A stretch of 35,878 bases of DNA from a virus (IMGVR_UViG_3300006840_000056:1-35878), one strand, 5' to 3'. Positions 2,939 through 33,619 are shown, counted from the stretch's first letter. Made by a program: numbers and translations. Notes: a model not told the origin generated them from the letters alone.

Positions 2939-3138
2939 TTATTTTCACCGCCTTTCAAATTAGAACTTAATACTTTTACTAACTCATTTTTGGTTGTCTT
3001 AAAATTAATTATATTCACTTCGTTACATTTAGGGCATTTTATTTCCAATCTCCCCGCATAGATATATTCCATAGCCAACAAGTTACGACACTTGCTACAT
3101 CTAAACTCTCTATAAGGTTTTTCATTTATATATCTCAT
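2935..3138 (-). CDS. Com-like zinc-ribbon protein
   Basis: FRCSKCRNLLAMEYIYAGRLEIKCPKCNEVNII matches the phage Mu Com pattern R-C-x2-C-x2-L-L-x(7-8)-[IL]-E-I-[RK]-C-P-[RK]-C. Its stop overlaps the tail tube ATG (ATGA). Confidence 0.65.
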   Translation of the reverse strand: MRYINEKPYREFRCSKCRNLLAMEYIYAGRLEIKCPKCNEVNIINFKTTKNELVKVLSSNLKGGENK

Positions 3139-3515
3139 CTTCTTATCTTACAAACAAAATTAATACTAAACTCGTGCCTGCCCTTGTCGTCACGTCCTAT
3201 GTGGGCTGGTTCATTAAACAAAAATATGTAATAAAAATATGTACCACCAGTTACAAGTTCAATGTTTTCTTTTTGGTGCAATGCCTCTACTATTTCATCT
3301 ACTATGCTTTGCCCAGCAGAGTAACTTGTGTTTCTTACTAATATTTGAAAAGTTGGATCTGCTGTTGGCAAGTATCTGTCCGGTTCTAATCCTCCTGTAT
3401 CATAAATAACCACCTGATTATTGGGACTTTCCGTCTGTCTTGACTTAAACAAATCAGTACCGGCTGTTAAGCTAGTTTCCTGTCCTATGTATGTATATAT
3501 ATCGTTTATAATCAC
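3135..3515 (-). CDS. tail completion / tail terminator-like protein (minor capsid protein family)
   Basis: 126 aa with a GTG start in a GTGA overlap and GAGGT upstream. Size and position between the gp10-like gene and the tail tube fit this role. Confidence 0.55.
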   Translation of the reverse strand: MIINDIYTYIGQETSLTAGTDLFKSRQTESPNNQVVIYDTGGLEPDRYLPTADPTFQILVRNTSYSAGQSIVDEIVEALHQKENIELVTGGTYFYYIFLFNEPAHIGRDDKGRHEFSINFVCKIRR

Positions 3516-3847
3516 CTTATTACCTCTGCACTAAGCGTTTTTCCAACCAACTTTTCTAGTCGGCTTAAATTATGTTTTATAGGATCTTCTAAGTATTTAC
3601 CTTTCCTACCATTCTTAAAATTGTATTCCGGGTGTTCGTGCAATCGGTGAGCATATTTTGTGTGATAACCAACCTCAACGTGATCAGTAAATGTATCTAC
3701 CCTACCAGAGTTAGCCAAAGTACCTTTATCAAAAGGCACTTCTATATTTGATAGACGCAATATTTCATCTCCAGCCATCTTTTCAGCTTTTTGCTTTGCT
3801 GGATCTATCCTTTTATTTAGTTGTTTTAGTAAGTCAGTAAACAACAT
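3512..3847 (-). CDS. HK97 gp10-like head-tail joining protein
   Basis: Motifs VPFDKGTLANSG...VEVGYHTKYAHRLHE resemble the gp10 family. I take ATG 3847 (AAAGGTGGGAAGCATAATG). The track's GTG 3871 has no SD spacing. Confidence 0.7.
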   Translation of the reverse strand: MLFTDLLKQLNKRIDPAKQKAEKMAGDEILRLSNIEVPFDKGTLANSGRVDTFTDHVEVGYHTKYAHRLHEHPEYNFKNGRKGKYLEDPIKHNLSRLEKLVGKTLSAEVIR

Positions 3848-4014
3848 TATGCTTCCCACCTTTGTACCCACACCTCATAGTGATGAACTTTTGAAATATC
3901 GTCCAACGCTTCTTTTAACGCAATAACCCTGTAATCCTGTCCGTCATAGGTAACCTTTGTACCAACCGTCAACCCTTCGGTTTCTTTATCCATATAAATT
4001 AGTGCGTCAGCCAT
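3847..4014 (-). CDS. head closure / head-tail adaptor-like protein (minimal ATG-initiated version; frame is open up to 4167)
   Basis: Own translation: ...IKVYGTVTRNEYNEESFSGGNDYYGRFQLKNKLFTNEKGEDIMADALIYMDKETEGLTVGTKVTYDGQDYRVIALKEALDDISKVHHYEVWVQRWEA. TAATG overlap with the next gene. The first canonical start is ATG 4014. Confidence 0.5.
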   Translation of the reverse strand: MADALIYMDKETEGLTVGTKVTYDGQDYRVIALKEALDDISKVHHYEVWVQRWEA

Positions 4015-4160
4015 AATGTCTTCGCCTTTTTCGTTGGTAAATAATTTGTTTTTTAGTTGAAATCTGCCGTAATAATCATTTCCACCACTAAAAGATTCCT
4101 CGTTATATTCATTACGAGTTACAGTTCCATAAACCTTAATTATGTGTTTAAGTAAATGTT

Positions 4161-4826
4161 TTATAGCTCAATACGACCCTTTTTATTGTAGATGCCTTTC
4201 AGTAGGTTACGAGCATTTGGGGATATGAAGCGGTTTCTACCGCTTTTAACTTTATAACTGTATCCCTCTAATTGCTCGGAATCGTAGTCTACCGCACCTG
4301 CAAAGTAGTCGTTTCCTTTCTCAATTATATACTCAACTTGTGCTAACGTTGCACGTGTTACCGCTTCCGGTATGCTTTTGTACCATTTACTATCACCACT
4401 TAAAAAAGCGTCCTCATCACGTGGGAACTTTCCAAGTTGCTTGATTACATAAAAAGATGTGTTGTCTGGATTTGTAGTCCAATCAGGGCTTACAGTTATT
4501 TTGTTAGATGATTTACTTGACGATACTATGTTACGGGTTTGTCCGCTACCTGTACCGCCAATTATTTCTACCTGACAATAAGTAAAATAGTCGTCAAAAT
4601 GCACCTTTAATGGTGAATCACTTGACGTATCAATTAAATAATTACTGCCACCCGATGTTGCAAGACCAGAATAAACATCGTCTACGTGCTTCACTTGGAA
4701 ACCAACGTAGGCGTCAACCATTTCCTCTGCGTGGGACATTTGGTCTTCTGCCTCTTTAGCATCAGTTACTTGTATGTTGGAAAACTGTTCTATTTCGTCT
4801 TCCGTTACATATTGCCTTTTAGTCAT
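4161..4826 (-). CDS. head-tail connector protein (gp6-like N-terminus, about twice the usual length)
   Basis: The N-terminus MTKRQYVTEDEIEQFSNIQVTDAKEAEDQMSHAEEMVDAYVG looks like phage gp6-type connectors. It is the first gene of the connector block. Confidence 0.6.
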   Translation of the reverse strand: MTKRQYVTEDEIEQFSNIQVTDAKEAEDQMSHAEEMVDAYVGFQVKHVDDVYSGLATSGGSNYLIDTSSDSPLKVHFDDYFTYCQVEIIGGTGSGQTRNIVSSSKSSNKITVSPDWTTNPDNTSFYVIKQLGKFPRDEDAFLSGDSKWYKSIPEAVTRATLAQVEYIIEKGNDYFAGAVDYDSEQLEGYSYKVKSGRNRFISPNARNLLKGIYNKKGRIEL

Positions 4827-4858
4827 ATATGTTAATTATATCACCTACCTTTCACACA

Positions 4859-6346
4859 TTAAACATCTAAATGCTTGTACCACTTTTCGTCTTGCTTTAC
4901 GCCTATGGTTTTATTATCACGGTTATACCAACCTTTATGCTGTCCTGCGTACCAGCTACCCTTACCAACTATTAATGCACTACGGCTTGATGTTCCTGTG
5001 TTGCCACCAGTTAACTTGGCTGGGCGTGTATCTTGGGCGGTGTCCTTACCTGTTATTTTAGCTGTTCTGGTGTCCTGTGCGGTGTCCTGTGCGGTTAGTT
5101 TGGCATTTCTGGTATCGTTAGCCCCTAATATCCCAACCACTTTAGCCGAACGTACACTATTGGCTAAATCACTACCTTTTATTGTTGCACCCCTATTTGT
5201 GTCACTTGTGTCACAACCAACCAACCTTGCATTACGTATATTAGAAAGTGTTTCTATTCCTTTTAGGGTTGCACTTCGGTAATCATTTGCTGTTTCCTTA
5301 CCAATAATGTGGGCGTTCCTTGTATCTTGGGCGGTGTCGTAACCAGTTACTTTAGCGTTACGATTATCATTAACGGTTGTAGCAACACCTGTTAGCTTGG
5401 CATTTCTGTTATCAATAGATGTTTCCTTACCTGTTATTTTAGCCAGTCGGTAATCGTTAGCTTGGGCAACACCTGTTAGTTTGGCGTTCCTTGAACTATT
5501 AACATCTATACTACCCGTAATGTGGGCTGACCTATTGTCGCTGGTGGTGTCAATACCAGTTAACTTGGCTAACCTAACACTACTACTACCACCCTTAACG
5601 GGTATTTTAGCCATTCTAAAAGACGATGTTGTTTGTTTACCAGTTAGCTTTGCGTCCCTTGTATCGTTTTCATTTATACCGCCTGTTAACTTTGCTGGTC
5701 GGTTGTCGTTTGTAGTGACAACACCTGTTAACTTGGCGTTTCTATAATCATTAGCCAAAGCACTACCTGTTAATTTTGCAGAACGGTTATCATTAGAAGT
5801 ATCCTTACCTTTTAGGTATGCACTTCTTTGGGTGTCAGATACCACCCCACCCGTGATAACGGCTGTACGGGCATTGTAGGCGGTTGTTTTTCCGCTTACT
5901 TTCGCATTTCTTGTTGAAAATGCTGTTTCCTTACCTGTTATTTTAGCTTCCCTGTCATCGTAAGCTGTTTCAACACCTGTTATTTTGGCATTTCTGTCTG
6001 AATTGGCTGTGTCTTTACCAGTTATTTTGGCACTTCGTGTATCGTTTGCAGTATCATATCCTGTTAGTTTTGCGGAACGATAATCAAGGGAAGTGTCTTT
6101 ACCGATTATTTTTGCACCTCTGTAGTCGTTAGTGAGTAAACTACCTGCTATCTTAGCCCCTCTGCTATCGTAAGTTGTGGCAGAACCTGATATTTTTGCA
6201 TTTCTATCAGAATTAATATTTGTGCCTACAGTTTCTTCAGTTAGTACAACATATGCCTCACCGTTTATCCAATATTTAAGACTCCCTAACCCTGTGTCGG
6301 GAAGGACAGGCTCTCCATTGTTCCAATATTTGAGGTTTCCAATCAT
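4859..6346 (-). CDS. repeat protein: 30 tandem 14-residue units (consensus x-D-x-R-x-A-K-[IL]-T-G-x-[DE]-T-x), putative fibre
   Basis: I counted 30 consecutive units from SDRNAKISGSATTY to SSRSALIVGKGSWY. The N-terminus has duplicated LKYW(N/I)NGE motifs. The C-terminus is Trp/Tyr-rich (WYAGQHKGWYNRDNKTIGVKQDEKWYKHLDV). Confidence 0.85.
   Translation of the reverse strand: MIGNLKYWNNGEPVLPDTGLGSLKYWINGEAYVVLTEETVGTNINSDRNAKISGSATTYDSRGAKIAGSLLTNDYRGAKIIGKDTSLDYRSAKLTGYDTANDTRSAKITGKDTANSDRNAKITGVETAYDDREAKITGKETAFSTRNAKVSGKTTAYNARTAVITGGVVSDTQRSAYLKGKDTSNDNRSAKLTGSALANDYRNAKLTGVVTTNDNRPAKLTGGINENDTRDAKLTGKQTTSSFRMAKIPVKGGSSSVRLAKLTGIDTTSDNRSAHITGSIDVNSSRNAKLTGVAQANDYRLAKITGKETSIDNRNAKLTGVATTVNDNRNAKVTGYDTAQDTRNAHIIGKETANDYRSATLKGIETLSNIRNARLVGCDTSDTNRGATIKGSDLANSVRSAKVVGILGANDTRNAKLTAQDTAQDTRTAKITGKDTAQDTRPAKLTGGNTGTSSRSALIVGKGSWYAGQHKGWYNRDNKTIGVKQDEKWYKHLDV
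4946..6211 (-). repeat. 42-bp (14-codon) in-frame tandem repeat array, about 30 diverged copies
   Basis: Periodicity is visible in the protein (R-x-A-K every 14 residues) and in the DNA (recurring ttagc/ttggc...acctgtta strings). Confidence 0.85.
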
Positions 6347-6351
6347 AGTTT

Positions 6352-7836
6352 TTAACTCGCTGAAATATCATCAATAAATACATTCCCCGATGAACCCCTG
6401 CATTTGATACGAAGCTCCAAAATTCCATCCTCTGTTATACTCCCAGAAGACGCCACAATACTTTTCTGTGCATAGGAAGTTGTTGGTGTCCACTCTGTCC
6501 AACCTGTGATTTTTTCTCCCATAAAGTAAATTGCCGCTTGTACATCACCATTAAAAGAAGCATCGTCTTTTATGTAAGCAGATAAGGTTTGAGATACGCC
6601 ACTATCGGCTTTGAAAAAGAACGATTGACTAATATAATAAACTGCTGATGTCGGAGTGTATTTTAGACACTCACCACTTCTGGCGTTTGCTGTATCTCTC
6701 TCTGTTGTTCCGTATTCATAGAAACATTTATTTACTCCCGCTGTTTTGAAGTGCTGACATTTTAGACAAGGGTAGTCTCCGTAGTGCCTTGCAGGAGATA
6801 CATAAACATCTGTTGAGTTTCCTGTTCCTGAATATTTATTTACAATGTTGTTTGGACTGTTGCTTAAATAAATACCCCCACTATTACTATTACAAGTTGG
6901 GGTAGTTATGGTGTTGTTTGAACTGTAGTATAAATCAATACCGTAACTATTACTATTACAGGTTGGAGTAGTTATGGTGTTGTTTGAACTGAGTTCTAAA
7001 TAAATACCGTAACTATTACTATTACAGGTTGGAGTAGTTATGGTGTTGTTTGAACTGTAGTATAAATCAATACCGTAACCATTACTATTACAGGTTGGAG
7101 TAGTTATGGTGTTGTTTGGACTGTTGCTTAAATCAATACCCTCACTATTACTATTACAGGTTGGAGTAGTTATGGTGTTGTTTGGACTGTTGCTTAAATA
7201 AATACCATAGTTATATCTCAAAAAATGACATCGTTCTATTTCAACATAACTTTTGCTACTTAAATAGAGTCCATAACCATACCTATTAGCAAAAGTTGAG
7301 TGCATTTGTCTAAAATAAGTCTGCCCATTTTGTGTAGGACCTGATAAATCCCAACCACCAGATATTTTTAACTTACTTGATGAAGTTCCTGAAGCAGAAA
7401 CTGTTTGAACAGCTGTCCAATTGCTTGCCGCTCCTGTACTTGTTATTCCCAATTTCTGTGAAGAAACTCCGCTTTGTGTAGCCCCAGAATAGTTTTTATA
7501 CAGCGTAGCGTGAGTGCTATCCGTAACTGTTATAACTTCCCACCAATTACCATCTCCTCCTTTTATAAAATCACCCAGTCTTACAGAACCATCGGTCTCA
7601 CCACCAGATACAGCATTAACAAAAATTGCACTTGTAGAAACTACTGCCGTATCATTTTGGGTAAAACTCAAAGTTCCTGCTAAATCAATCGGGGCTGGAC
7701 TTTTGGCGACACGAACCTCATCACCACCTGTTAAACCAGTTGACGCTTTAGTTATTGTTTTATAAGGGTTTCCAGCAGAACCATCTCCTGTATCATCGTG
7801 TCCATTTATGTAATCACAATATTTTATATATGCCAT
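6352..7836 (-). CDS. right-handed parallel beta-helix repeat protein with a C-terminal jelly-roll/CBM-like domain (depolymerase-like)
   Basis: The N-terminus DGSAGNPYKTITKASTGLTGGDEVRVAKS is the typical pectate-lyase-fold entry motif. It has 5.5 near-identical 22-aa coils (LSNSPNNTITTPTCNSNSYGID). The C-terminus ends ...GNVFIDDISAS. Confidence 0.8.
   Translation of the reverse strand: MAYIKYCDYINGHDDTGDGSAGNPYKTITKASTGLTGGDEVRVAKSPAPIDLAGTLSFTQNDTAVVSTSAIFVNAVSGGETDGSVRLGDFIKGGDGNWWEVITVTDSTHATLYKNYSGATQSGVSSQKLGITSTGAASNWTAVQTVSASGTSSSKLKISGGWDLSGPTQNGQTYFRQMHSTFANRYGYGLYLSSKSYVEIERCHFLRYNYGIYLSNSPNNTITTPTCNSNSEGIDLSNSPNNTITTPTCNSNGYGIDLYYSSNNTITTPTCNSNSYGIYLELSSNNTITTPTCNSNSYGIDLYYSSNNTITTPTCNSNSGGIYLSNSPNNIVNKYSGTGNSTDVYVSPARHYGDYPCLKCQHFKTAGVNKCFYEYGTTERDTANARSGECLKYTPTSAVYYISQSFFFKADSGVSQTLSAYIKDDASFNGDVQAAIYFMGEKITGWTEWTPTTSYAQKSIVASSGSITEDGILELRIKCRGSSGNVFIDDISAS
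6838..7197 (-). repeat. 66-bp in-frame tandem repeat, about 5.5 near-identical copies
   Basis: ggttggagtagttatggtgttgtttga/gactg... recurs every 66 nt and encodes the 22-residue beta-helix coils. Confidence 0.9.
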
Positions 7837-7837
7837 A

Positions 7838-8254
7838 TTATTTTACCTCCGTAGAAGTGTTAACTAAACACCAGCAATTACTCGGATTATTTTCATCTAC
7901 CCAAAGTTGTAGTCTGTAGTTGGGATAAATTGCCTCAATGAAGACAAATAGTTCTTCGTGTTTTTCGCCGCTGTTATCCTTAACGTCATAACCAATATGA
8001 TGACCAAAGTTAAACCCAATAGGTTTTTCAACGTCATAAAACGCCTTAAATCGTGGTCTTTTTCCACCACTTGGTAAATTAAATGTCCTGTTACCGCTGG
8101 TTAAGAGTGAAAGGGAAGTAATTTCCAAATTATTTTCTTGTACGTATTTTAACAACTTTTGCCACGCCGATGACTCAACGTCGCTTACAAAGTCGTTGTC
8201 TTCTAATATCTGTTGCCCGTTTGATAGAGCAACCTGCCATTTTATAGATTTCAT
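7838..8254 (-). CDS. hypothetical protein
   Basis: 138-aa ORF with an ATG start, tightly packed with its neighbours. No motif recognised. Confidence 0.6.
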   Translation of the reverse strand: MKSIKWQVALSNGQQILEDNDFVSDVESSAWQKLLKYVQENNLEITSLSLLTSGNRTFNLPSGGKRPRFKAFYDVEKPIGFNFGHHIGYDVKDNSGEKHEELFVFIEAIYPNYRLQLWVDENNPSNCWCLVNTSTEVK

Positions 8255-8307
8255 AAAAGCCCCCTATAAAACAAATACTTGGTATCGCTTAATCCCAAGC
8301 CATATTA

Positions 8308-8874
8308 TTAGCTGTAGGTTAATTCTATTCTGAACGCAAAAGCTGTCTTTTCACCAACCGAAGCCGGTGACGCTGATACACCTATGTAATAATCGTGTGA
8401 TGTACTTGCAGTGTCGTCGTTCAAAGTTAAAGCTTTACCACTACCTTCTATTTCTGTGAAGTTGGTGTCACCAACTTCAAATGCCCTTACATCTATGTCT
8501 GTAGGTGCGGTTGCTGGTGTAGTACCATCATACGCATAAAATTTAGCATTTGTAGTTGTTACTGCCGAAGTGTGCGAGAAGTTAATTTTTAGTGTAGCTT
8601 CTGCGTTTGTTATTGCGTCAATGTCTTCTGTACCGTCACCCCAGTCTGCTTGTGAGTCGCCACCGCCACCACCTGATTGTGAAATGAACTTCACGTTGTT
8701 AGGTGTATTGCCAGACGAATCGTTAGCACCCACACTACTTTCAACGTGTGTGCTGTCGTTATACGAACCTACCGTAATGGGGCTACCAAAAGTAGCACCT
8801 GCAAATTGTATTTTGTCGGTTGCGTCTATTGTTGTAGGGGTTGCACCCTGTAATGTCCAAGTAAATGTTGCCAT
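8308..8874 (-). CDS. Ser/Thr/Gly-rich hypothetical protein (possible virion decoration protein)
   Basis: 188 aa with a strong SD (GAAAGGCGGTG). Low-complexity T/S/G stretches (SQSGGGGGDSQ, TTPATAPT). Location in the head-proximal island. Confidence 0.55.
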   Translation of the reverse strand: MATFTWTLQGATPTTIDATDKIQFAGATFGSPITVGSYNDSTHVESSVGANDSSGNTPNNVKFISQSGGGGGDSQADWGDGTEDIDAITNAEATLKINFSHTSAVTTTNAKFYAYDGTTPATAPTDIDVRAFEVGDTNFTEIEGSGKALTLNDDTASTSHDYYIGVSASPASVGEKTAFAFRIELTYS

Positions 8875-8892
8875 ATATAATTACACCGCCTT

Positions 8893-9171
8893 TCAAAATA
8901 AATTAAATACTTTATCTTTCATTTTAGTTATTTCTTTTAATGCAATGTCTTTTTCCATATCTTTTTTAACTGCTTTTTGTAATTGGGCTACAAAGTCTTC
9001 CCATTTAATTACGCCCTGCTCGGTGGATATGCCAAAAGGTTTATACCATTTATTCTTACCAGATACTATTTCAACTGACACAACACCACGCTTGTTGGTA
9101 TCGTCCATTTTTATATCCACTATTTTGGCGGTTATCTTACTTAACTTTTGTTCAAATGATAGTTCTGCCAT
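8893..9171 (-). CDS. hypothetical protein
   Basis: 92-aa Lys/Glu-rich ORF with an ATG start. No motif recognised. Confidence 0.6.
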   Translation of the reverse strand: MAELSFEQKLSKITAKIVDIKMDDTNKRGVVSVEIVSGKNKWYKPFGISTEQGVIKWEDFVAQLQKAVKKDMEKDIALKEITKMKDKVFNLF

Positions 9172-9198
9172 ATATGTTAATTATACCACCTGTATATA

Positions 9199-12183
9199 TT
9201 AAAAACACCTCATAACTTCTTTTGGAATACTACCTGTATACTTTTCTACAGTACCACCCCCGTGTGTAGGTTGTGTCGGGTCGCCTGTTTTCCAGTCGGT
9301 CCAAGTATCTTTTACTGTAAGTCGTGTGTCCCTGTTTTTGTAGAACTCCAATTTGTCTTTAATGTCTTCAGCGTCTTTACAATACCCAAAATGGTGTAAC
9401 TTAATACTATTATCTAATACTCTGCCGTATTTGTCACCTATACGTGTACCACTTACAAGTGTTGGTTCACTTGCGTGTTGCTTGATTTCCAGCCCTTTTT
9501 CGGCAAACCTAAAACATCTAAATAGGTTACTTTCCCACTGACTACCTACGGCTATCATATCTAACGACTTCCAAAAATGTAAATGCTTAAAATAAATAAC
9601 ACCCGCATTGGGGTTTTCACGCATTTTCTTAACTAATTTACGCCAATAATAATCACCCCACACTTCGTCCCCGTCAACAAACAATCCCCAACCTACTTGG
9701 TCAGCTAAATCAATACATTTTTGTCGCAATGCTTCCTTACCACTAACCCACCCCATTTGCTCGTATATTATCTTATTTGGATATTCTTCCATTACCTTGC
9801 GTATTTCCTTTTCAGTATTATCAACACTTAAACCTCTTTCATTAGCACGTGGGTAACGCCTGTCAGCACCCTCAACCACAATTACCTTGTCTACTTCTTT
9901 ACGCTTACATACCGCACGTAATGACGCACCTATGAACTTTTCTTCGTTTAAGACAATAAACATAGGCGTTACTTTTAGTTTTTCGTCTTTTTTCCTGATA
10001 GGTTTAACTATGTTTAACAACTTGTCCTGCATAACCTCAAAATAATGGTCTGTTTTAGGTGTAAGTGGTTTGCTACCAATAGCAAGCCCTAACTTGTCCT
10101 GTAATTCCTGTTTGTCAAAACATTTTGCCTTATACATACCCCCATCATCGTAAATATCCTTTATAGCTGGTAAGTCGTAACACACTACTGGTATACCCAT
10201 TGCCCGTGCTTCCGTAACCCACATACCAAACCCCTCAAAATGTGAACCAGATAACACACATTTACTTTGTGCCATTAGTTTGAACTTTTCCACATCTGAC
10301 AGTTGAGTATGCACCACAACCTTGTCAAACGGTATACCCAATGCCTCTACTTTGTTTATTATGCCGTTATCTTCATTAGTTATTATGTGTAATGTGTGGT
10401 CACGGCTAAACGGCTTAAACGCCCACAATGCTTCTAAAAAGCCCTTTCTTGGGTTATTACGTGATATCATAACTATGTGGTTGCCTCTTGCACGTTTAGT
10501 ACGTTTATCAAACAACTCAACCAACCTACTATTTACTGCGGGGTGTAGTGCTACGATGTATTTCTTGTCTATACCATACCATTTAGCCCAATCGTCAATA
10601 CTGTTTTCTGTCAACACAATTAACTTAAAATCAATTAACTCGTGTAAATGCTTGTCTAAAAAGTCCTTTAACTCGTAGTCCCTTTGTAATTCGTCTTTGG
10701 TACAAACATCACTATTCTCTACCCAAGTAGGTGGGTCAAACATTGTGATATAAACGGGTTTTTTGTATTTAAGCCCCAACCGTAAAGCACACATACTTGC
10801 TTTCGCGGGACTGCCAAAATACGCATTGGCTTCTACATCTAAATCATAAAACGCCTCTGCACCTTTGTATTTTGATTTATTGTCGTGTCCTATTATTCTA
10901 ACTTCGGGCGTTTCGTATAAATCAAAGTCCTTTCTAAATATTGGCATTTCGTTCGTATAAATAACTGTCTTTAGGTTGGATTCGGTTAACATTAATGCCT
11001 GTAACCAACTGTGGTATCTACCGCCAGAATAGAAACGTATATCTTCTGTTAAAAAAGCCACATCAGGTTTATCGTCTGGTATTACCTTGCTGTTTACTTC
11101 CTTTAATACCTTTGCCAACTTTTTAGCCGAGTGTTCTGCTGTCCAATTCTCACTTACCCATTTAGCACCCGCCTTACCTTTTGCCCGTGCTTCGTCTTGG
11201 TGTTCGTATACATAACGCATTTGCTTTTTAAGTGATTCTAAATCGGGTTCAATCATTCTACCCACATCGCTGGGTGCATAGTTTGAGTATACTGCTGGGC
11301 AATCGCCGTTAATGTCTATTTCATAAAAATAATCGGGGTCAAAGTATTCCGACATACCGCTTCCATTAGGTATCAGTACGGGCAGTCCTGTTGCAAGTGC
11401 TTCTAAAGGTGTAAGCCCAAAACCCTCGCCCCTGCTTGGGAATACAAACGCATCTGCTTGGGATAACAGGTCACGCATTTGCTGGTAACTGTATTCGGCT
11501 TTTATTACATCTATGTTAGGGTACTGGTCTTTTAATAATGGGAACGGCGGTTTATTGTGTATGGTTTTGAATATCATCTTAACTGGCTCGTCAATACCGA
11601 ACTCTTGGGTAAACGCCTTAAAAACCAAATCAAAGCCCTTTCTTATATTAAAAGCATTGTAATGTAAAAAGGTAAACACGTCGTGCTTTGGGCGTTCAAT
11701 ATATCTGTATTCTTCGTGGTTATACCCCAAAGGTACTACTGTTGTTTCTATGCCACGTGTGGCAAACATTTCTTGGCAGAACTCACTTGGAACAATTACC
11801 TTATCGGCTCTTTTTAAGTGCCTAACCCAGCTTGTAGGTATGGTGGTGCTTTCAAACATTGAATATATTACTTTAATGGGTGTTTTTAGTCGGTCTGCAA
11901 ATACAGGCGTGTAATAACACATACCTATGTTTTGCCCGTCGTATTTTTTGCTAATATTAACACCGTGTTTTTTTAGGTGTTTCATTAAATATGCTTGACT
12001 TTGCCCGTACCCGTCAGGGCGGTCAGTAGAGGTTAACAAATATACTGGTAAACCAGCACTTGTATCTTGTTTATTAATTGTCTTGGGCTGTTCATCTAAT
12101 AAAGTAAAACCACGCCTTAAAAGCTGTTCAACCTTACTGCTTGAAACACCCACGATTTGCCCAGAAGGATTACGTAAAAACAT
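9199..12183 (-). CDS. three-domain glycosyltransferase (GT-B/GT4-like + GT-B/GT4-like + GT-A/GT2-like)
   Basis: Two E-x7-E type GT4 signatures are present: PSRGEGFGLTPLEALATGLPVL and SGSHFEGFGMWVTEARAMGIPVV. The C-terminal domain (VTPMFIVLNEEKFIGASLRAV...VVEGAD...FVDGDEVW) has a DxD motif typical of GT2. Confidence 0.8.
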   Translation of the reverse strand: MFLRNPSGQIVGVSSSKVEQLLRRGFTLLDEQPKTINKQDTSAGLPVYLLTSTDRPDGYGQSQAYLMKHLKKHGVNISKKYDGQNIGMCYYTPVFADRLKTPIKVIYSMFESTTIPTSWVRHLKRADKVIVPSEFCQEMFATRGIETTVVPLGYNHEEYRYIERPKHDVFTFLHYNAFNIRKGFDLVFKAFTQEFGIDEPVKMIFKTIHNKPPFPLLKDQYPNIDVIKAEYSYQQMRDLLSQADAFVFPSRGEGFGLTPLEALATGLPVLIPNGSGMSEYFDPDYFYEIDINGDCPAVYSNYAPSDVGRMIEPDLESLKKQMRYVYEHQDEARAKGKAGAKWVSENWTAEHSAKKLAKVLKEVNSKVIPDDKPDVAFLTEDIRFYSGGRYHSWLQALMLTESNLKTVIYTNEMPIFRKDFDLYETPEVRIIGHDNKSKYKGAEAFYDLDVEANAYFGSPAKASMCALRLGLKYKKPVYITMFDPPTWVENSDVCTKDELQRDYELKDFLDKHLHELIDFKLIVLTENSIDDWAKWYGIDKKYIVALHPAVNSRLVELFDKRTKRARGNHIVMISRNNPRKGFLEALWAFKPFSRDHTLHIITNEDNGIINKVEALGIPFDKVVVHTQLSDVEKFKLMAQSKCVLSGSHFEGFGMWVTEARAMGIPVVCYDLPAIKDIYDDGGMYKAKCFDKQELQDKLGLAIGSKPLTPKTDHYFEVMQDKLLNIVKPIRKKDEKLKVTPMFIVLNEEKFIGASLRAVCKRKEVDKVIVVEGADRRYPRANERGLSVDNTEKEIRKVMEEYPNKIIYEQMGWVSGKEALRQKCIDLADQVGWGLFVDGDEVWGDYYWRKLVKKMRENPNAGVIYFKHLHFWKSLDMIAVGSQWESNLFRCFRFAEKGLEIKQHASEPTLVSGTRIGDKYGRVLDNSIKLHHFGYCKDAEDIKDKLEFYKNRDTRLTVKDTWTDWKTGDPTQPTHGGGTVEKYTGSIPKEVMRCF

Positions 12184-12224
12184 ATTTTTATTTAATAAAT
12201 TATATCAGTTGGGTGAAATATACA

Positions 12225-12258
12225 CAATACACAAAATGCCCCACCGAAGTGAGGCATT
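12225..12258 (-). terminator. rho-independent terminator after the major capsid gene
   Basis: Minus strand AATGCCTCAC-TTCG-GTGGGGCATT (10-bp stem, UUCG loop) followed by TTTGTGTATT. Confidence 0.7.
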
Positions 12259-12282
12259 CTGCTTTATTCAGTTGTTAGTACC

Positions 12283-13224
12283 TTACGCATCTACTGCGGG
12301 TTGGTGTGCGATAGCAACCATCAATTCAGGTCTAATGGTCTTAACTCCGTAAAGGATATCAAGCGTACATTGTAAACCAAGTCCTGATTTATCGTATCCA
12401 ATAGTGCTTCTGATAGCCAAGCCACTCTCTGCGTCTTGAACAGTCATTTGGCTTACGCCATTTCCGTTACCCCAGTCAGGTAATGGTCTGACCGCCAGAA
12501 CAAGAGCATCGCTACCATAAACGATTGGGTAATAAGTGTCAGGTGACGTACTGTCATCAACACCTACAACTTGTGATTCAAACAAGTTAATACCCGCCAG
12601 TTTTTCAACTGAAGCGTCTAAAAGCGGTTTGTTATTTCCGAATTGTGACGCATCTTCAATACCAGTCTCGTTAAGGATTTCTTCAACCGCATACTCGTCA
12701 AGCTGTGCGAACATAGGTGCGAACTTTGGTAACTTGTTAGTTACTAGGGTTCGTCTAGCTCTTACCAACGCCTTTTTCCAACCAGTAAAGTCGGTATAGT
12801 CAAGCGTTGTACCAGCGTTTGCGTATTCATCGGCAATATCCTGTTCCACCTGTTCAGCGATAACTGCAACCGCATCTCTAATGTAAGCCTCTAACACTGC
12901 TGGGATAGACACTGCTTTCGCAACGTCCTCAATCATAAAGGTTACTTCCTTATGCTTGTTAAGTACCACCTGCACTACATCATCATCAGGTGCTTGTACT
13001 GTAACATTAGTTTTAGCTGTCTTATCGTTTACTTCAAGTGTTCCTCTTACTGGAATATCCAATGTAGTACCTCTGCTTGCGAAATCGCCAGAATAATCCT
13101 TTCTAACGGTTCTTGCAAGGTTTAGGTACTTTCTTAAATAATCAAGTCCCTCGTTTGCTGACCTAACCATTATTTCAGGTATATGATTAGCAAGTTCGGT
13201 TTGTCCTATTGCTGTATATGGCAT
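12283..13224 (-). CDS. major capsid protein
   Basis: 313 aa with a strong SD (GAAAGGTGGTGAAATAAAATATG). It lies directly after the scaffold gene and is followed by a strong terminator, which fits a highly expressed late gene. Confidence 0.8.
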   Translation of the reverse strand: MPYTAIGQTELANHIPEIMVRSANEGLDYLRKYLNLARTVRKDYSGDFASRGTTLDIPVRGTLEVNDKTAKTNVTVQAPDDDVVQVVLNKHKEVTFMIEDVAKAVSIPAVLEAYIRDAVAVIAEQVEQDIADEYANAGTTLDYTDFTGWKKALVRARRTLVTNKLPKFAPMFAQLDEYAVEEILNETGIEDASQFGNNKPLLDASVEKLAGINLFESQVVGVDDSTSPDTYYPIVYGSDALVLAVRPLPDWGNGNGVSQMTVQDAESGLAIRSTIGYDKSGLGLQCTLDILYGVKTIRPELMVAIAHQPAVDA

Positions 13225-13280
13225 ATTTTATTTCACCACCTTTCAACTTTGTGAGCCGTCAGGTGGTAAAACCACCCTAC

Positions 13281-13913
13281 CTACTCATTGTAATTAATAC
13301 GTCCTTCTTTTTTAGCTTTTTCAATTTCTTCCTTATGCTCGGTATACCATTTATTGTCTCTTGACTGTCTTTCTATCTCTGACCATTTCCAAAACTGTGC
13401 TTTGCTTCCTGTATCAGCTGTGGTTGGTGTACCGATGTTCTTTTTATCGGGTTCAGCGAGTAAGTATGGTTTAGCAGTTAGTAATTCAGATACTACGGTG
13501 TTGGCGTTTGCTATGTTGCCCTCTGCATCTACTTCAATAGTGTTAAGGTCAATCAAGCGTACAACGTCATCAAGGGCTTCCTTACGTACGCCCTGTGCAA
13601 CTGCTTGTGAAATAACAGCTTGTCTTTTCGTCTGATTAACGATTTGCTGTTTTAAGCTCTCGTTTTCAGCTTGGTACTTGTCAGCAAGTTCCTTAAACGC
13701 TTCTTTTTCTTTTAACTTTTCTTCTTCGGCTTTGGCTTGGTCGGCTTTTAGCTTTTCAAGTTCCTTTGCTTTTGCAGTTAAATCCTTAAAGCGTGGGTGC
13801 TTAAACGCAAGTTCCCATTGTTCGTCTGTTAATTCTACTTCTTCGCTTTTAGATTGACCCTTCGGTTGTTTAACGTCTTCCGTAGACGGGGTTTCTTCTT
13901 TTTTTTCTTCCAT
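13281..13913 (-). CDS. head scaffolding protein
   Basis: Lys/Glu-rich coiled-coil sequence (KAKELEKLKADQAKAEEEKLKEKEAFKELADKYQAENESLKQQ) between the gp7-like and capsid genes. Start taken at ATG 13913. The track's GTG 13934 is the SD itself (GTGAAAGGTGGTG). Confidence 0.75.
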   Translation of the reverse strand: MEEKKEETPSTEDVKQPKGQSKSEEVELTDEQWELAFKHPRFKDLTAKAKELEKLKADQAKAEEEKLKEKEAFKELADKYQAENESLKQQIVNQTKRQAVISQAVAQGVRKEALDDVVRLIDLNTIEVDAEGNIANANTVVSELLTAKPYLLAEPDKKNIGTPTTADTGSKAQFWKWSEIERQSRDNKWYTEHKEEIEKAKKEGRINYNE

Positions 13914-13978
13914 TTTCAAATCACCACCTTTCACTTGGTAACGGGGTTGTGTCCCCGTAAAGTAGTTTAATATATATA

Positions 13979-14815
13979 TTATATCCTTAATTGGTTAGAT
14001 AATGCAATACCCGTGTCAATTAACTCTGGGTGATAAGGTAATAACCTGTGTTTACAATTAGGGTGAAAAACTCCAGCCATTTCAGCTTCGCTTACTGTAG
14101 GGTATCCGTGCGTAGCACCAGTCATAGACAACACCTTGCCGTCCCACGGCTTACATAAATCGCAACCACCGCCGTGACTACTAACCTGTACTAAATCGTA
14201 CCCTTCCATTTTTAAACGGGTAGTTATACCCATATTAGTTACTTCACGCATACGAGTACGGGTTAACATTTCTGCATACACATCTAACTTCCACTCCCTA
14301 CCGCCCTTATCTACTATGGCTGTAAAATCCTTTGCTAAATCGTTTACTATTTTGTCTTTTAGCTCTTTTAATGTATCGCCTTGCAATTTACCCTCAATAA
14401 ATATAGCCTCTAAACGTGCCTTACGCACATCAGTCATTACTTTTTGCGTAGCAGTAAAAGTACCCCGTAACGCCTCACCATAATCATTTAAGGTATCACT
14501 TATTATGCTATTTAATTCAATTATTTGTTGTTCGGATAGTTTGCCTGTAGCTGTTAAACCAGCACTACGCATTGCATTGGTTACTTCTAATTGACTGCTG
14601 GTATAGTGCCAACGTATTTCTTTTTCTATTAGGGGATATGCTTTCTTTTCAGTACGCCTGATTAGTTCAGCCACACCTTCCATAGCGGTTGGTATATCTA
14701 TGTCACGGCGTGTCACAAAACTGGCTATTATCAGCTTCCTTATATTAGATGATAATTTACTAAATAAACCAGATATTTGTTTTGTAGCGTCTTCTATTGA
14801 TTTCCTTGATGCCAT
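13979..14815 (-). CDS. head morphogenesis protein (SPP1 gp7 / Mu F-like)
   Basis: The C-terminal ...GVFHPNCKHRLLPYHP matches the gp7-family HPNC+C signature. It lies immediately after the portal gene. Confidence 0.8.
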   Translation of the reverse strand: MASRKSIEDATKQISGLFSKLSSNIRKLIIASFVTRRDIDIPTAMEGVAELIRRTEKKAYPLIEKEIRWHYTSSQLEVTNAMRSAGLTATGKLSEQQIIELNSIISDTLNDYGEALRGTFTATQKVMTDVRKARLEAIFIEGKLQGDTLKELKDKIVNDLAKDFTAIVDKGGREWKLDVYAEMLTRTRMREVTNMGITTRLKMEGYDLVQVSSHGGGCDLCKPWDGKVLSMTGATHGYPTVSEAEMAGVFHPNCKHRLLPYHPELIDTGIALSNQLRI

Positions 14816-14817
14816 AT

Positions 14818-16254
14818 TTACTCCTCATCATCGTTAGGCTGTAGCTTATCAATGATAGATGTAAAATTGGCACGGCTTTTTTCTATTTCTTCAACTTCCC
14901 TCTCAGCTTCTGCGTCATCATATCCGTCTAATAACATAATGGCTGATTTCTTGCTTAGTATACCTGCGTCCACACGCTTAATTATTGTTTCTGTTTCTTC
15001 CACAACGTCATTTACAATGCCATCACCAAACACTATGTTAACCGGTTCTATTTCCTTACAGGTTATTTTCTTACCCATATAGGTAACCCCAACGCCCTTA
15101 TTATTAGCTGATAGTTTCTGTGCTATTTCAAATACTTCTTTTAACGCTTGTTCGTAATATCTTTTCTTTCGTTCCGCTTTGGCAATGGTTCTAATAAGTC
15201 GCATTTTTAATGCCCTACCGGATTGAATAGCACCATCCTTGCCCATACCTAATACGTCTGGGCTTACTTCTGATGACATAAACAGGAACTCCATCATCTT
15301 TTCTATCTCTTTGAAAGCATTATCAAGTGAGGCATTCCAAACAATATATTGTGGTACTTCACCATCATCACCTAACTCAATCATTTGCAGGGCTTCTTTT
15401 TTAACCCTGCCTTCTTCATCTAACACCCCGTCAGGCACGGCAAGTATTGGATCGCTGTGTTTGTCTAGTATGTTGGCTGTCTTGGTTAAACGATTATTTA
15501 ACTCAAACTGTAATGATTCAAAATCAATAAAATCAGACACACCCCAAAAGTCCTTACTACCCCTGTAACGCATATTGGGAACAAATACCAGCAGAGGTTT
15601 ATCAATATTGGTTTCAACTAATGGTTCGTAATTAGTACCGTACTGGGCATTGTATTCTTTAACATCTACTTCTTGGTCAATTATATTGTTATCACCCTTA
15701 ACTACGTATATCTTGGTTTCAACCTTACCTGCTGTGTGTATTTCTCTTACTAAAAACCTTGCTTCTTCTCCCTGTTCAGTTTGGTACAAATCAATCCACG
15801 CTAACTCTTGCACGTCTGGTGTCTTGCGTGGGTTTCTACCATTAACTTCCGGGAAATAAATAGCTGGGTCGGTGTCTTCAATTACTATTTCGTTATTTTC
15901 AACACGTATCTTAAATAAAGCATCACCTAAAGCCGAGTTGCTAATAGCAGACTCAAGCAACTGTGTGCTTAACTTATTATTGTAAACTAAACCGTCAACA
16001 AAGTCTTGGTTCTTGTCAGCATAAAAAGCAACATCTTCACCAAACAGCATATCAGCACTTACTTTGGCAACAAGTGCATTAAAATTAGCCACGATGTATC
16101 GTAGCTTATTATATCGTTCAGAAAAGGCACTTTCTCCTTCTATAGCAAATGCTTCAAAATGTTTACCCTCTAACAGTCTTTCGTTTACTTCGTAGGTATG
16201 TAACCTACCTGTTTCCGACTCATACGGAAATTGTTTTGCACCTTTGAATGGCAT
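14818..16254 (-). CDS. portal protein (SPP1 gp6-like)
   Basis: 478 aa directly downstream of terL, with an acidic C-terminus. Size and order fit a portal. Confidence 0.8.
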   Translation of the reverse strand: MPFKGAKQFPYESETGRLHTYEVNERLLEGKHFEAFAIEGESAFSERYNKLRYIVANFNALVAKVSADMLFGEDVAFYADKNQDFVDGLVYNNKLSTQLLESAISNSALGDALFKIRVENNEIVIEDTDPAIYFPEVNGRNPRKTPDVQELAWIDLYQTEQGEEARFLVREIHTAGKVETKIYVVKGDNNIIDQEVDVKEYNAQYGTNYEPLVETNIDKPLLVFVPNMRYRGSKDFWGVSDFIDFESLQFELNNRLTKTANILDKHSDPILAVPDGVLDEEGRVKKEALQMIELGDDGEVPQYIVWNASLDNAFKEIEKMMEFLFMSSEVSPDVLGMGKDGAIQSGRALKMRLIRTIAKAERKKRYYEQALKEVFEIAQKLSANNKGVGVTYMGKKITCKEIEPVNIVFGDGIVNDVVEETETIIKRVDAGILSKKSAIMLLDGYDDAEAEREVEEIEKSRANFTSIIDKLQPNDDEE

Positions 16255-16271
16255 ATATATTATTATAACAC

Positions 16272-17423
16272 CTAGAACGGTTTAGTAGTATATGCTTTTG
16301 CCTTTTTTGGCTTGTTCATATACGAGTGAACCGCATAGCGTAAACTATCTACAAAGTCGTCCCTTATTTTAACGGGTTCGTCAAGCACACGGTCGTCCTT
16401 TGTTTTCCAGCTATAAGACTTCAATTCTTTTAGGGCGTTGCTTGACGCTTTATCAACAAACAACCGCCTACTTTTTATAGTATCTATTCCTTTCTTAACG
16501 TCCTTGTCTGCGGGGTATATGTTGTAACCCGCCTTCTTTATTTCCTCAATACGTTGTGGCTCGGCACTATCTGCAAACATATATGTGTTTTTGTCTATTC
16601 CTATATCGTTCATTTTTTTAATAAGGTCTTGGTTGGTTATGTAGCTTTCGTAAATAACTTCCTGTGTATATACATCATCATCTTTTAACACAACCCTTGT
16701 CAATGCTGTAGGGTGATTCCAGCCAAAGTCCAAACCATAAACCATTTCACCCTCTGGTAAACTATCAATTAGTTCCCACATTGTGTATATTCTCACACTA
16801 CTTACACCACGTTGTCCAAGCCCGTAAATATTCCAATAGTTAGGATCAAGTTCCTTAAAATGTTCTATTTCCTTTACTATTTCCTTTGGTAAAAAGGGAT
16901 TGTCCTTATAGGTACTTACTATTAAACGTGCGTCTTTCCTTGTTAGTACGTCATCGTAAATCCAATGAAACTCATCACTTGGGTTAAAGTCCATAAATAT
17001 CTGCGTGTTGGTACGCATATTCAACTGTCTAAACGATTCCTGCGACAATTCGTTAGCTTCGTTTATCCACAGGTAATCCCTACGCCTACTACGTACTTTC
17101 TGCGGTTCGTCTAACCCGAAAAACTCTATCTCGTTGCCGTGTAATGTGTAAATGTTTTCTGTTTTATTGTGGTTTTCTTCGTTGTACACACCCAAGCCCT
17201 GCAATATGTTAAAAAAGTCCCTCATAGCAGTAGCACGTAACGTGGGCATTGACTTACGCACTATACTAAACACCTTACCCTGTGTTTGCTGTGCTTTTAC
17301 TATGAACAGTTGTGCTAACGAATAAGATTTGGAACTACCTGTACCACCTTGGTTTACTACAAACCTTTCGGTAGCTTTGTAGTTTTCGTTAAATACTCTC
17401 GTTGCTTTCAGAGTTAGTTCCAT
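16272..17423 (-). CDS. terL: terminase large subunit (PBSX/Terminase_3-like)
   Basis: Walker A-like VVNQGGTGSSKSYS. The Walker B region is ...DYLWINEANEL. The C-terminal nuclease region is DFGWNHPTA...FADSAEPQ. Confidence 0.9.
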   Translation of the reverse strand: MELTLKATRVFNENYKATERFVVNQGGTGSSKSYSLAQLFIVKAQQTQGKVFSIVRKSMPTLRATAMRDFFNILQGLGVYNEENHNKTENIYTLHGNEIEFFGLDEPQKVRSRRRDYLWINEANELSQESFRQLNMRTNTQIFMDFNPSDEFHWIYDDVLTRKDARLIVSTYKDNPFLPKEIVKEIEHFKELDPNYWNIYGLGQRGVSSVRIYTMWELIDSLPEGEMVYGLDFGWNHPTALTRVVLKDDDVYTQEVIYESYITNQDLIKKMNDIGIDKNTYMFADSAEPQRIEEIKKAGYNIYPADKDVKKGIDTIKSRRLFVDKASSNALKELKSYSWKTKDDRVLDEPVKIRDDFVDSLRYAVHSYMNKPKKAKAYTTKPF

Positions 17424-17817
17424 CTACTATTTCTACCTTTATACCTGTAATTAAATCACCCTCGTGCTTCATTGTTTGTAGTGCCCTACCCTCTGTTCTA
17501 TCTGCTAAATCCTTATACTCACCTAAATCCTTTCTACTTGCCTTTACTCTTTCGTAAGCAATTATTTCGGCAACATACATATCGTCTTCATTTCTTGAAA
17601 GGGCATATTCTTTGAACTCTTTTGATGTTAGGTTCTTAAAGAACTGCAACCAATAACCAAACCTCTGTTCGTTCTTTGGTCTGCCTGTTCTGTTTATATC
17701 TTCTGGTCGTTCCTGCAACCCACCTTTGCCCGTAGGATTAAGCACAGCACCTTGTTTTAACGTGCCGTCAGGATTCCTCAAACTATCTTGATTTGAAGTT
17801 AGATTATCTTGTTCCAT
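17389..17817 (-). CDS. terS: terminase small subunit
   Basis: NPTGKGG...RTGRPKN motif typical of small terminases. It overlaps the terL start. Start taken at ATG 17817 (the track uses TTG 17823). Confidence 0.7.
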   Translation of the reverse strand: MEQDNLTSNQDSLRNPDGTLKQGAVLNPTGKGGLQERPEDINRTGRPKNEQRFGYWLQFFKNLTSKEFKEYALSRNEDDMYVAEIIAYERVKASRKDLGEYKDLADRTEGRALQTMKHEGDLITGIKVEIVDGTNSESNESI

Positions 17818-17834
17818 ATACAAATTATATCACT

Positions 17835-18251
17835 TTACCTGCGTCTACTAAACATCTGTACACAGTACCCATTACTACAACTGACACAACTATGTGTATA
17901 ATCGTTTTCTAAATTAGCCCTGTGGGTGTCAGAAGATAACCAAGCATTGAGTGTACTTTCAGCGTCATTAAAATCTTTAGCAAGGTTCTCACCAATGTGC
18001 TTATACCCTAACTTAAACATTACCGGTACATATGCCCAGAACCCGCGATGCGACCAATCAACCTGTATTTCTTTTACACGCTTACTTGCTATATAACACA
18101 GACAGTAATCCTTTTTGTAAGCACTTCTTCCATCCTCAACACGCCAGTCCTGTACTTGCTTCCACACGCTACCGGATGACGGAGAAGCAAATGTCGTGGT
18201 TGTAGTAATTACAAGCAAACCTATAAATATAAGGTGTTTAAGTTCTTTCAT
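17835..18251 (-). CDS. secreted CAP/SCP (YkwD-like) domain protein
   Basis: Signal peptide MKELKHLIFIGLLVITTTTTFASP. CAP motifs GENLA...AWLSSDTHRANL...GYCVQMF. Start taken at ATG 18251 rather than TTG 18260. Confidence 0.65.
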   Translation of the reverse strand: MKELKHLIFIGLLVITTTTTFASPSSGSVWKQVQDWRVEDGRSAYKKDYCLCYIASKRVKEIQVDWSHRGFWAYVPVMFKLGYKHIGENLAKDFNDAESTLNAWLSSDTHRANLENDYTHSCVSCSNGYCVQMFSRRR

Positions 18252-20879: not shown

Positions 20880-20974
20880 TGTTTATCACCACCTTTCAAA
20901 AATAAATTAGTAAAACTCTTAACTAACTACCAAACAATTCTTTTATTAAATTGTTATAGTGTCTGTCTCCTTTA

Positions 20975-30772: not shown

Positions 30773-30785
30773 ATAATATATTATA

Positions 30786-33580: not shown

Positions 33581-33619
33581 ATTATTTTCCTTTCTTTAAT
33601 TATACCAATTAATTACTAT

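Follow-up and report, generated by a model that had tools for sequence, protein, structure and literature searches.

A three-domain glycosyltransferase encoded behind the capsid gene of an uncultured siphovirus and its plausible role in virion glycosylation

What would a tailed phage modify with a glycosyltransferase (GT) of three domains that is encoded directly behind its major capsid gene? This question is raised by the viral sequence IMGVR_UViG_3300006840_000056:1-35878 (the window, i.e. the whole stretch of 35,878 nucleotides analyzed here), in which a preliminary description had reported a 994-amino-acid (aa) open reading frame (ORF) at positions 9199-12183, read as a fusion of three GT domains and thought to glycosylate virion proteins. 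An ATG-to-stop ORF is indeed present at this position, on the minus strand; the plus-strand frame across 9199-12183 is full of stops when translated. We found the structural description of the 994-aa protein to be correct, and the proposed function in virion glycosylation to be plausible and better supported than before, short of proof. The window carries an identical terminal direct repeat of 133 bp (1-133 and 35746-35878) and the tape-measure gene spans the junction, so that it represents a complete circular assembly of ~35.7 kb, and thereby a complete siphovirus genome. Every gene of the window, and every feature located in it below, lies on the minus strand.

Searches with hidden Markov models, which had been proposed as a check of each domain, supported GT4 and GT2 assignments above the curated Pfam cut-offs. 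Glycos_transf_1 (PF00534) matched the protein in two stretches (whole-protein E = 1.7e-30, 106 bits versus a cut-off of 26.4), the best of which was aa 558-698, and the companion GT4 models Glyco_trans_1_4, Glyco_trans_1_2 and GT4-conflict (the last at 3.4e-19) had their best stretches within approximately aa 217-356; PF13692 scored 85 bits versus a cut-off of 27. Glycos_transf_2 (PF00535) matched aa 744-876 (E = 2.2e-9, 37.9 bits versus 23.3). Two PHROG families, 2170 (1.8e-58) and 4356 (5.6e-34), both annotated as glycosyltransferase, were also matched. The AlphaFold2 model, built from 43 homologues, had a mean predicted local distance difference test (pLDDT) score of 89.8 and consisted of three separately folded α/β domains, with short connecting segments of low confidence (aa 33-41 and 367-369). 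The order GT4, GT4, GT2 in one chain is thus agreed upon by Pfam, the AlphaFold2 model and the invariant motifs described below, and the domain and motif signal is far beyond chance.

The first GT4 domain (aa ~45-365, positions 11089-12051), the universal core of the family, contains EGFGLTPLEALATGLPVL at aa 253-270, and the second (aa ~372-725, 10009-11070) contains EGFGMWVTEARAMGIPVV at aa 650-667; both GT4 signatures had been recognized in the preliminary description. Their EX7E motifs (E253-x7-E261 and E650-x7-E658) are invariant among the 43 homologues, and in the first domain R181, K182 and K206 are, like E253 and E261, invariant across homologues. The DxD motif FVDGDEVW, also noted before, was located at aa 835-842 in the C-terminal GT2 (GT-A) domain (aa ~738-994, 9202-9972), where D837, D839 and E840 of the DxDE element (D837-G-D839-E840) are invariant in 18 full-length homologues; this domain ends in a conserved tail of its own, K..YY..RD...W..WK.G..TQPTHGGG. 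The homologue sets in which invariance was scored (18-43 sequences) have an overall identity of only 34-68%. The conservation pattern indicates that all three domains are catalytically intact, two being predicted as retaining-type GT4 (GT-B) and one as inverting-type GT2 (GT-A) transferases. Since the protein has no hydrophobic segment (maximum Kyte-Doolittle value over 19 residues, 1.22), it should be a soluble, presumably active, trifunctional enzyme. The first GT4 domain is preceded by a mini-domain (aa 1-30, 12094-12183; consensus M.YL.NPSGRIVEV...L...GF), modeled as a β-hairpin plus a helix (E2-4, E10-12 and H15-23) and followed by a variable, disordered linker (low pLDDT, aa 33-41). The mini-domain is conserved in stand-alone and fused relatives alike; that it serves in docking is only a guess.

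The protein is a clear member of the CAZy-type families GT4 (twice) and GT2. Foldseek searches with the model returned MshA, BshA, PglA, WaaG, PimA and B736L at a probability of 1.00 and target template modeling (TM) scores of 0.6-0.76, and TarM was also among the 50 matches listed. By sequence, the nearest solved relatives of GT4 domain 1 are generic GT4 enzymes (the WbaZ-1 mannosyltransferase, 7qsg and chlorovirus B736L), the profile of GT4 domain 2 matched MshA-like 7qsg, BshA, WaaG, SdgB and GtfA, and a methylmannose-polysaccharide mannosyltransferase was a further generic match of the GT4 domains. For the GT2 domain the top profile match in the PDB was GmaR (1.3e-6, full length), followed by SpsA (3e-4) and SunS (3e-3). 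GmaR is the Listeria flagellin O-GlcNAc transferase and SunS the SPbeta sublancin peptide S-glycosyltransferase. Their alignments with the phage domain cover the whole catalytic domain, including the DxD and HYGY regions, whereas the tetratricopeptide repeat/anti-repressor part of GmaR and the peptide-binding domains of SunS have no counterpart in the phage protein; the similarity hints weakly that the acceptor is a protein. Among the functionally defined transferase models of NCBIfam, none scored above its cut-off for the 994-aa protein, hence donor and acceptor are not assignable by homology. Among cultured phages, a DNA-level search gave no match to the gene, and a protein-level search gave only distant, single-domain transferases of actinophages and archaeal viruses. 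The closest of these to the N-terminal domain (24-29% identity) come from Streptomyces, Rhodococcus, Arthrobacter and Microbacterium phages; no Mycobacterium phage protein matched at E <= 1e-5.

The transferase family is large and known only from metagenomes. It was matched by 479 IMG/VR stretches and, at E <= 1e-5, by 276 protein clusters, the best 70 of which lie on contigs of no more than 40.4 kb. In 72 of the 75 loci with enough upstream DNA, the gene that immediately precedes the transferase, on the same strand, is a capsid homologue; the median gap between the matches is 128 nt, and capsid identities go down to 29%. Of 82 loci scanned, 80 contained the N-terminal GT4 domain, and the remaining two are truncated upstream of it; the middle GT4 domain was present in 56 and the C-terminal GT2 domain in 19. 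The cassette is 1.3-9.1 kb long, counted from the start of the transferase gene up to whichever conserved head gene comes next. In its minimal form it consists of one 482-aa transferase, and other loci have a stand-alone gene of the N-terminal type (~400 aa) followed by up to nine separate genes, transferases among them. Fused forms comprise proteins of 730 aa (GT4-GT4), ~970 aa (GT4-GT2-GT4), 1255 aa (with an FkbM methyltransferase) and ~1650 aa (a third GT4 in addition to methyltransferase domains). Pfam searches of 67 cassette ORFs yielded 16 Glycos_transf_1, 8 Glycos_transf_2, 8 Methyltransf_24 and 3 GDP-mannose dehydratase matches, as well as FkbM-type and O-methyltransferases, cytidylyltransferases and proteins resembling 3'-phosphoadenosine-5'-phosphosulfate reductase.

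The universal part of this cassette evolves with the head genes. Across 26 loci, pairwise identity of the N-terminal domain correlated with that of the portal (r = 0.94) and of the capsid protein (r = 0.86), about as closely as the head genes correlated with each other (r 0.78-0.90), and the mean pairwise identities were 0.49 for the N-terminal domain, 0.51 for the portal and 0.46 for the capsid protein. The N-terminal domain co-diverges with portal and capsid and has therefore been inherited vertically with the head module. On this evidence it appears to be a core gene of the head module and not a moron, with everything downstream of it shuffled, fused and split; the GT2 domain also occurs elsewhere as a free-standing gene. 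No stretch of the capsid alignment was conserved enough to scan for capsid relatives that lack the transferase. Full-text searches of the literature did not turn up an account of this lineage, nor of any transferase cassette fixed behind a capsid gene.

Two further genes of the window bear on the function of the enzyme. A 336-aa protein (19197-20207) is a GDP-mannose 4,6-dehydratase, matching the equivalog model TIGR01472 with 461.7 bits versus a cut-off of 415 and Pfam GDP_Man_Dehyd at 4e-133. A 195-aa protein (18238-18825) is a class I S-adenosylmethionine-dependent methyltransferase by matches to Pfam Methyltransf_23/25/11 that are below or near the curated cut-offs, and its role as a sugar O-methyltransferase is possible given the methyltransferases that recur in related cassettes. 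In several relatives a dehydratase and methyltransferases lie inside the cassette, adjoining the transferase, which ties 19197-20207 and 18238-18825 to the function of the transferase.

The best explanation of these data is that the 994-aa gene represents, in this phage, a modular 'head glycosylation cassette' that belongs to the core of the head module throughout a large lineage of uncultured siphoviruses of 32-41 kb. On balance it is probable that the protein acts in the cytoplasm as a soluble enzyme and assembles a short glycan on at least one head protein while the particle is being put together, with a conserved initiator and a variable extension. In the mechanism that we propose, the N-terminal GT4 domain would attach the first sugar to Ser/Thr of a conserved head protein, and the second GT4 and the GT2 domains would extend or branch the glycan. 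The dehydratase would produce GDP-4-keto-6-deoxymannose from host GDP-mannose, at least one sugar of the glycan would be a 6-deoxyhexose derived from this compound, and the 195-aa methyltransferase might cap the chain. The hypervariability of the cassette implies that the glycan would differ from phage to phage, as O-antigens do.

The acceptor would be the capsid protein (313 aa, 12283-13224; PHROG 283 major head protein at 2.8e-32, Pfam P22_CoatProtein), with an additional 188-aa protein where that is present. The capsid protein is the leading candidate by association, being the only one common to all relatives. The capsid subunit of Che8-type phages is said to carry a terminal, Ser/Thr-bearing acceptor segment. 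No such segment was found in 77 capsid proteins of the present family. These are compact proteins of 300-319 aa, whose chains terminate just behind the last conserved strand, so a Ser/Thr-rich extension or a conserved acceptor segment had to be abandoned as the site of attachment; conserved Ser/Thr residues in the alignment are few and isolated (e.g. S227-P228). The 188-aa protein (8308-8874), which the preliminary description had singled out as an acceptor to be examined, is Ser/Thr-rich (25.5%) and is conserved more strongly than the capsid protein: its 627 homologues are all 187-190 aa long and ~70% identical. Its model (pLDDT 85) is a predicted β-sandwich with an exposed, conserved loop DGTTPATAPT and had no significant fold match in the PDB or BFVD. 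It is probably a head protein, and its ribosome-binding motif (see below) suggests a high copy number. Its composition and conservation speak for it as an acceptor. It is absent, however, from approximately half of the transferase-carrying relatives, and was therefore rejected as a universal acceptor and retained as a second candidate.

Several of the results weigh against head glycosylation. Besides the lack of a Ser/Thr-rich extension on the capsid protein and the patchy occurrence of the 188-aa protein, the genome encodes no 4-keto-sugar reductase, and the likeness of the GT2 domain to GmaR and SunS is weak (1e-6 and 3e-3) and includes no acceptor-binding domain. The placement of the gene in a structural operon, on which the preliminary description had relied, was confirmed insofar as it lies between the major capsid and the head-tail connector genes. 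The term 'late operon' carries less weight, because the whole genome is transcribed in one direction; with all genes on one strand, position alone does not prove late co-expression. The two other points against head glycosylation are those from which its principal rival draws its strength. The combination of GT4, GT2, dehydratase and methyltransferase is the classic gene set of O-antigen, capsule and teichoic acid loci, and in the structural search with the whole model the top match was a capsule-synthesis multienzyme of Actinobacillus pleuropneumoniae serotype 3 (8qoy; 808 aligned columns, TM-score 0.28, 12% identity), with the chlorovirus GT-B protein B736L (3oy2) second.

According to this rival explanation, the cassette modifies a glycopolymer of the host envelope (O-antigen, capsule, wall teichoic acid or another cell-wall polysaccharide), either blocking superinfection or preventing progeny from adsorbing to the debris of lysed cells, and its hypervariability tracks the diversity of host surfaces. 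WaaG, PglA, TarM and PimA among the further Foldseek matches fit this explanation, which is also the conventional reading of phage transferase islands, e.g. those of pelagimyophages (PMC7029224). The enzyme, however, has no transmembrane segment, and among the annotated ORFs of the complete genome we found no flippase, polymerase, ABC transporter or Gtr-type genes. The features of Gtr-type systems (a GtrA-type flippase, a polytopic transferase and a temperate life style) were likewise not seen among these ORFs. No integrase was found either, which argues against lysogenic conversion. The first domain, moreover, behaves as a vertically inherited head-module gene that adjoins the capsid gene in nearly all loci, and the family was not found on contigs of bacterial size, neither among the best 70 of the 276 clusters nor in a scan of a genome collection with the lineage-specific 188-aa protein. 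The latter yielded only four contigs of 10.7-40 kb, in metagenome-assembled genome (MAG) bins of four unrelated phyla, and never placed the protein inside a bacterial chromosome. We consider modification of the host envelope rather unlikely. The preference of the preliminary description for virion proteins over conversion of the host surface is strengthened by the capsid adjacency, the co-divergence and the lack of lysogeny and membrane genes; it is not helped by the capsid protein, which lacks a Ser/Thr extension.

We regard it as quite improbable that the enzyme serves takeover of the host or evasion of its defences by glycosylating a target outside the virion, be it a host flagellin, pilin or receptor, a small molecule or a lipid. 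The relatives of the GT4 domains do include transferases of small molecules (MshA, BshA and SenB), the GT4-conflict match quoted above points the same way, and GmaR, which the GT2 domain resembles, is directed at flagellin. Functions of this type are usually early and accessory, whereas here the core domain is as conserved as the portal and fixed behind the capsid gene; furthermore, cassettes with up to nine glycan genes suggest an elaborate oligosaccharide rather than one modifying sugar. Glycosylation of hydroxymethylated bases of the phage DNA, as a means of evading restriction, is scarcely credible: hypermodification of DNA is known for phage transferases with either fold (bioRxiv 10.1101/2023.12.21.572611) and one relative has a TAGT (PF20691) gene near its terminase gene, but that gene is separate from the cassette, the fold matches of the present enzyme are GT4 transferases of sugars, lipids or proteins, with T4 β-glucosyltransferase not among the 50 listed, and, by the criterion of a co-encoded pathway for 5-hydroxymethylcytosine or 5-hydroxymethyluracil taken from the same source, the scanned ORFs of the complete genome, outside which only unannotated ORFs shorter than 200 aa remain, contain no such pathway (no homologue of C5-cytosine methyltransferase, TET/5mYOX, dCMP/dUMP hydroxymethylase or thymidylate synthase).

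Head glycosylation finds its closest parallel in the chloroviruses. The preliminary description had cited PBCV-1 as a precedent, and the analogy has become closer still, as the present genome also encodes an equivalog-level GDP-mannose 4,6-dehydratase, an enzyme that PBCV-1 encodes as well, and a methyltransferase. The A111/114R protein of PBCV-1 comprises 860 aa with three glycosyltransferase domains of ~300 aa, the capsid of these viruses is glycosylated in the cytoplasm independently of cellular organelles, and a conserved glycan core carries virus-specific decorations (PMC7826918). Three enzyme domains of ~300 aa in one viral polypeptide and a virus-encoded sugar-nucleotide enzyme are found here too, and the conserved core with its decorations parallels the conserved N-terminal domain and the variable cassette of the phages. 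On the other hand, chloroviruses are giant viruses of eukaryotes with N-linked glycans and a double-jelly-roll capsid, whereas the present virus is a 36-kb tailed phage with a capsid of the HK97/P22 type, and the domain order and families of the phage enzyme (GT4-GT4-GT2) differ from those of A111/114R and A064R; of the chlorovirus proteins, only B736L appeared among the matches. A064R consists of two rhamnosyltransferase domains and a methyltransferase.

The second parallel is with phages of actinobacteria. For the mycobacteriophages Che8, Rita and their relatives, glycans covalently linked to the capsid subunits of a siphovirus are attributed to transferases of the phage, which frequently come with a methyltransferase (Freeman et al. 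2023, as described in PMC11256854 and PMC13313380). The likeness consists in a siphovirus genome that encodes a glycosyltransferase and a methyltransferase. The mycobacteriophage transferase genes are situated close to the right genome end (PMC11256854) and those of Streptomyces phage Beuffert several genes before the portal, not beside the capsid gene, in contrast to the position behind the capsid gene observed here; the actinophage transferases are single-domain proteins and not a three-domain fusion. Finally, their hosts are high-GC Actinobacteria, whereas the present genome has a GC content of 38% and a portal nearest to those of Clostridium, Paenibacillus and Bacillus phages. Comparable fused synthases are known from bacteria, e.g. 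the WbdA-type tandem GT4 mannosyltransferases. The multi-domain polysaccharide synthases represented by 8qoy combine several transferase domains in one chain and are associated with GDP-sugar enzymes and methyltransferases, as is the phage protein, but they act at the membrane on a lipid-linked or growing polymer and are encoded in export loci, whereas the phage gene stands in a head module without export machinery. Functionally, the cassette looks like the chlorovirus system and the virion glycosylation of mycobacteriophages, and it is not demonstrably a member of either the chlorovirus or the actinophage system.

The distribution of the family suggests a broader proposal, which we make tentatively and hold to be marginally more open to doubt than to belief: that a large, undescribed, non-actinobacterial siphovirus lineage carries a protein-glycosylation cassette as a core, vertically inherited component of the head module, giving each phage a capsid 'glycotype' under diversifying selection. 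To our knowledge, a few actinobacteriophages are the only phages whose own enzymes have been demonstrated to glycosylate the virion. In these, glycosylation alters recognition by antibodies and is relevant to phage therapy (PMC11256854, PMC10568470). Were the proposal true, virion glycosylation would be a widespread phage trait rather than an actinophage curiosity. If the head proteins are glycosylated, the trait would be common (hundreds of environmental genomes) and modular, and simple to transplant, since three transferases are contained in a single gene of 3 kb. In the variable cassette one would have a natural library of transferases acting on a defined protein scaffold, of use for glyco-engineering of phage capsids and for asking what selects the diversity of capsid glycans. 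It is the cassette of hundreds of phages, with its conserved initiator and hypervariable extension, that is of wider interest, more than the single fused gene, and the default annotations 'glycosyltransferase involved in cell wall biosynthesis' and 'auxiliary metabolic gene' are risky for genes of this kind.

Expression signals around the gene were analyzed in the window and in its relatives. Immediately after the capsid stop codon there is a hairpin with a 14-bp stem (12231-12262, -23.1 kcal/mol) that resembles an attenuator or a terminator. Among the related capsid-transferase spacers listed, 41 of 45 fold at -18 kcal/mol or below, compared with 8.8% of 70-nt windows drawn at random from these loci; an initial threshold of -12 kcal/mol was dropped, because 40% of the random windows reach it. 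Such a conserved hairpin is consistent with attenuation between a structural gene expressed in high copy and an enzyme gene expressed in low copy. By lowering read-through, it would keep the enzyme at catalytic rather than structural amounts. The motif TGAAAGGYGGTG, a strong ribosome-binding motif, occurs on the coding strand in exactly five mismatch-free copies (0.2 expected when one mismatch is allowed), at 2946-2957, 8884-8895, 13234-13245, 13922-13933 and 20887-20898, and precedes the genes of the major tail protein, the 188-aa protein, the capsid protein, the scaffold and the single-stranded DNA-binding protein; it appears to mark high-copy genes. The transferase gene does not have it. 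The copy at 13922-13933 falls within ORF 13281-13934, which has a GTG start; the scaffold therefore probably starts ~10 nt downstream of the motif.

An extended -10-like element, TGATATAAT, is located at 12199-12207, 15 nt upstream of the transferase start codon. The extended -10-like sequence TGNTATAAT has nine matches in total versus 2.9 expected, and seven are coding-strand copies situated 0-17 nt before a start codon (4835-4843, 9180-9188, 12199-12207, 16262-16270, 17824-17832, 30780-30788 and 33599-33607). These copies may be internal promoters that give rise to leaderless mRNAs or mRNAs with short leaders. The element TGATATAAT was rejected as a general private promoter of the transferase, as only six of 55 related spacers contain it, and this lack of conservation makes its function doubtful.

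The order of transcription places the dehydratase first, then the head genes, the transferase after the capsid gene and the tail genes last. Between the dehydratase and the capsid genes, family searches and ORF analysis revealed an HNH endonuclease (18809-19204), the methyltransferase described above, a CAP/YkwD-like domain protein (17835-18260), a 144-aa unannotated protein just upstream of the terminase gene (17389-17823), the terminase large subunit (16272-17423), the portal (14818-16254), a minor head protein (13979-14815) and the scaffold (13281-13934). The transferase gene is followed by three genes for unannotated proteins of 92, 188 and 138 aa (7838-9171). The first of these (8893-9171), which closes the cassette, has no family match and has homologues of 94-100 aa at the same position in relatives. 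Further on lie a 494-aa right-handed β-helix protein (6352-7836; Pfam NosD and Beta_helix, ~1e-20), a 495-aa repeat protein (4859-6346), head-tail adaptor and connector proteins (3135-4826), the major tail protein (2432-2938) and, across the junction to 31279, the tape measure followed by Dit and tail proteins.

The β-helix and the 495-aa repeat protein are both Ser/Thr-rich and encoded within the head-to-connector interval. The 495-aa protein is built of 30 tandem 14-residue repeats of exact period, G-x-D-T-x-x-D-x-R-x-A-K-[IL]-T, and had no significant Pfam or PHROG match. Homologues with 34-48% identity were found in nine related loci, and the gene lies just upstream of the head-tail adaptor gene wherever both are covered (L009, L025 and L046); the protein could be a fibre of the head and, possibly, an acceptor of the glycan. 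The β-helix protein is encoded between head and connector genes and not with the tail genes, and its gene includes 5.5 copies of a 66-bp (22-aa) tandem repeat with 90% identity (6846-7206), which suggests a recent expansion of the helix rungs.

Clues to the host are few. The portal is ~31% identical to portals of Clostridium, Paenibacillus and Bacillus phages, and this similarity, together with the strong Shine-Dalgarno motif, gives only a hint of a Bacillota-like host. A scan for transfer RNA genes found none in the genome. Five genomes of the lineage (L085-L088 and P0018) were binned as Fermentibacteria, Patescibacteria, Saccharibacteria, Paceibacterota and Gammaproteobacteria; all are contigs of ~8-40 kb, and the MAG bins are for this reason probably binning artefacts. 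Bins of the Patescibacteria type recur (three of the five), which might hint at the host.

Three side observations concern other sugar- and DNA-related genes. An unrelated phage with a different portal, terminase and capsid (L090) carries a free-standing homologue of the GT2 domain in the region 8118-11438. Beside it are a DegT aminotransferase and a GT2-FdtA fusion, and the group directly precedes the terminase gene; these genes appear to form another sugar cassette at the edge of a head module. The TAGT gene mentioned above (L083, 3146-3979) lies beside the terminase gene of a relative with a two-domain transferase, and that phage may modify its DNA as well. In the early/replication region of the window, a 176-aa pentapeptide-repeat protein is encoded at 21728-22258 (Pfam, 4e-41), which may act as a DNA mimic or an anti-defence factor.

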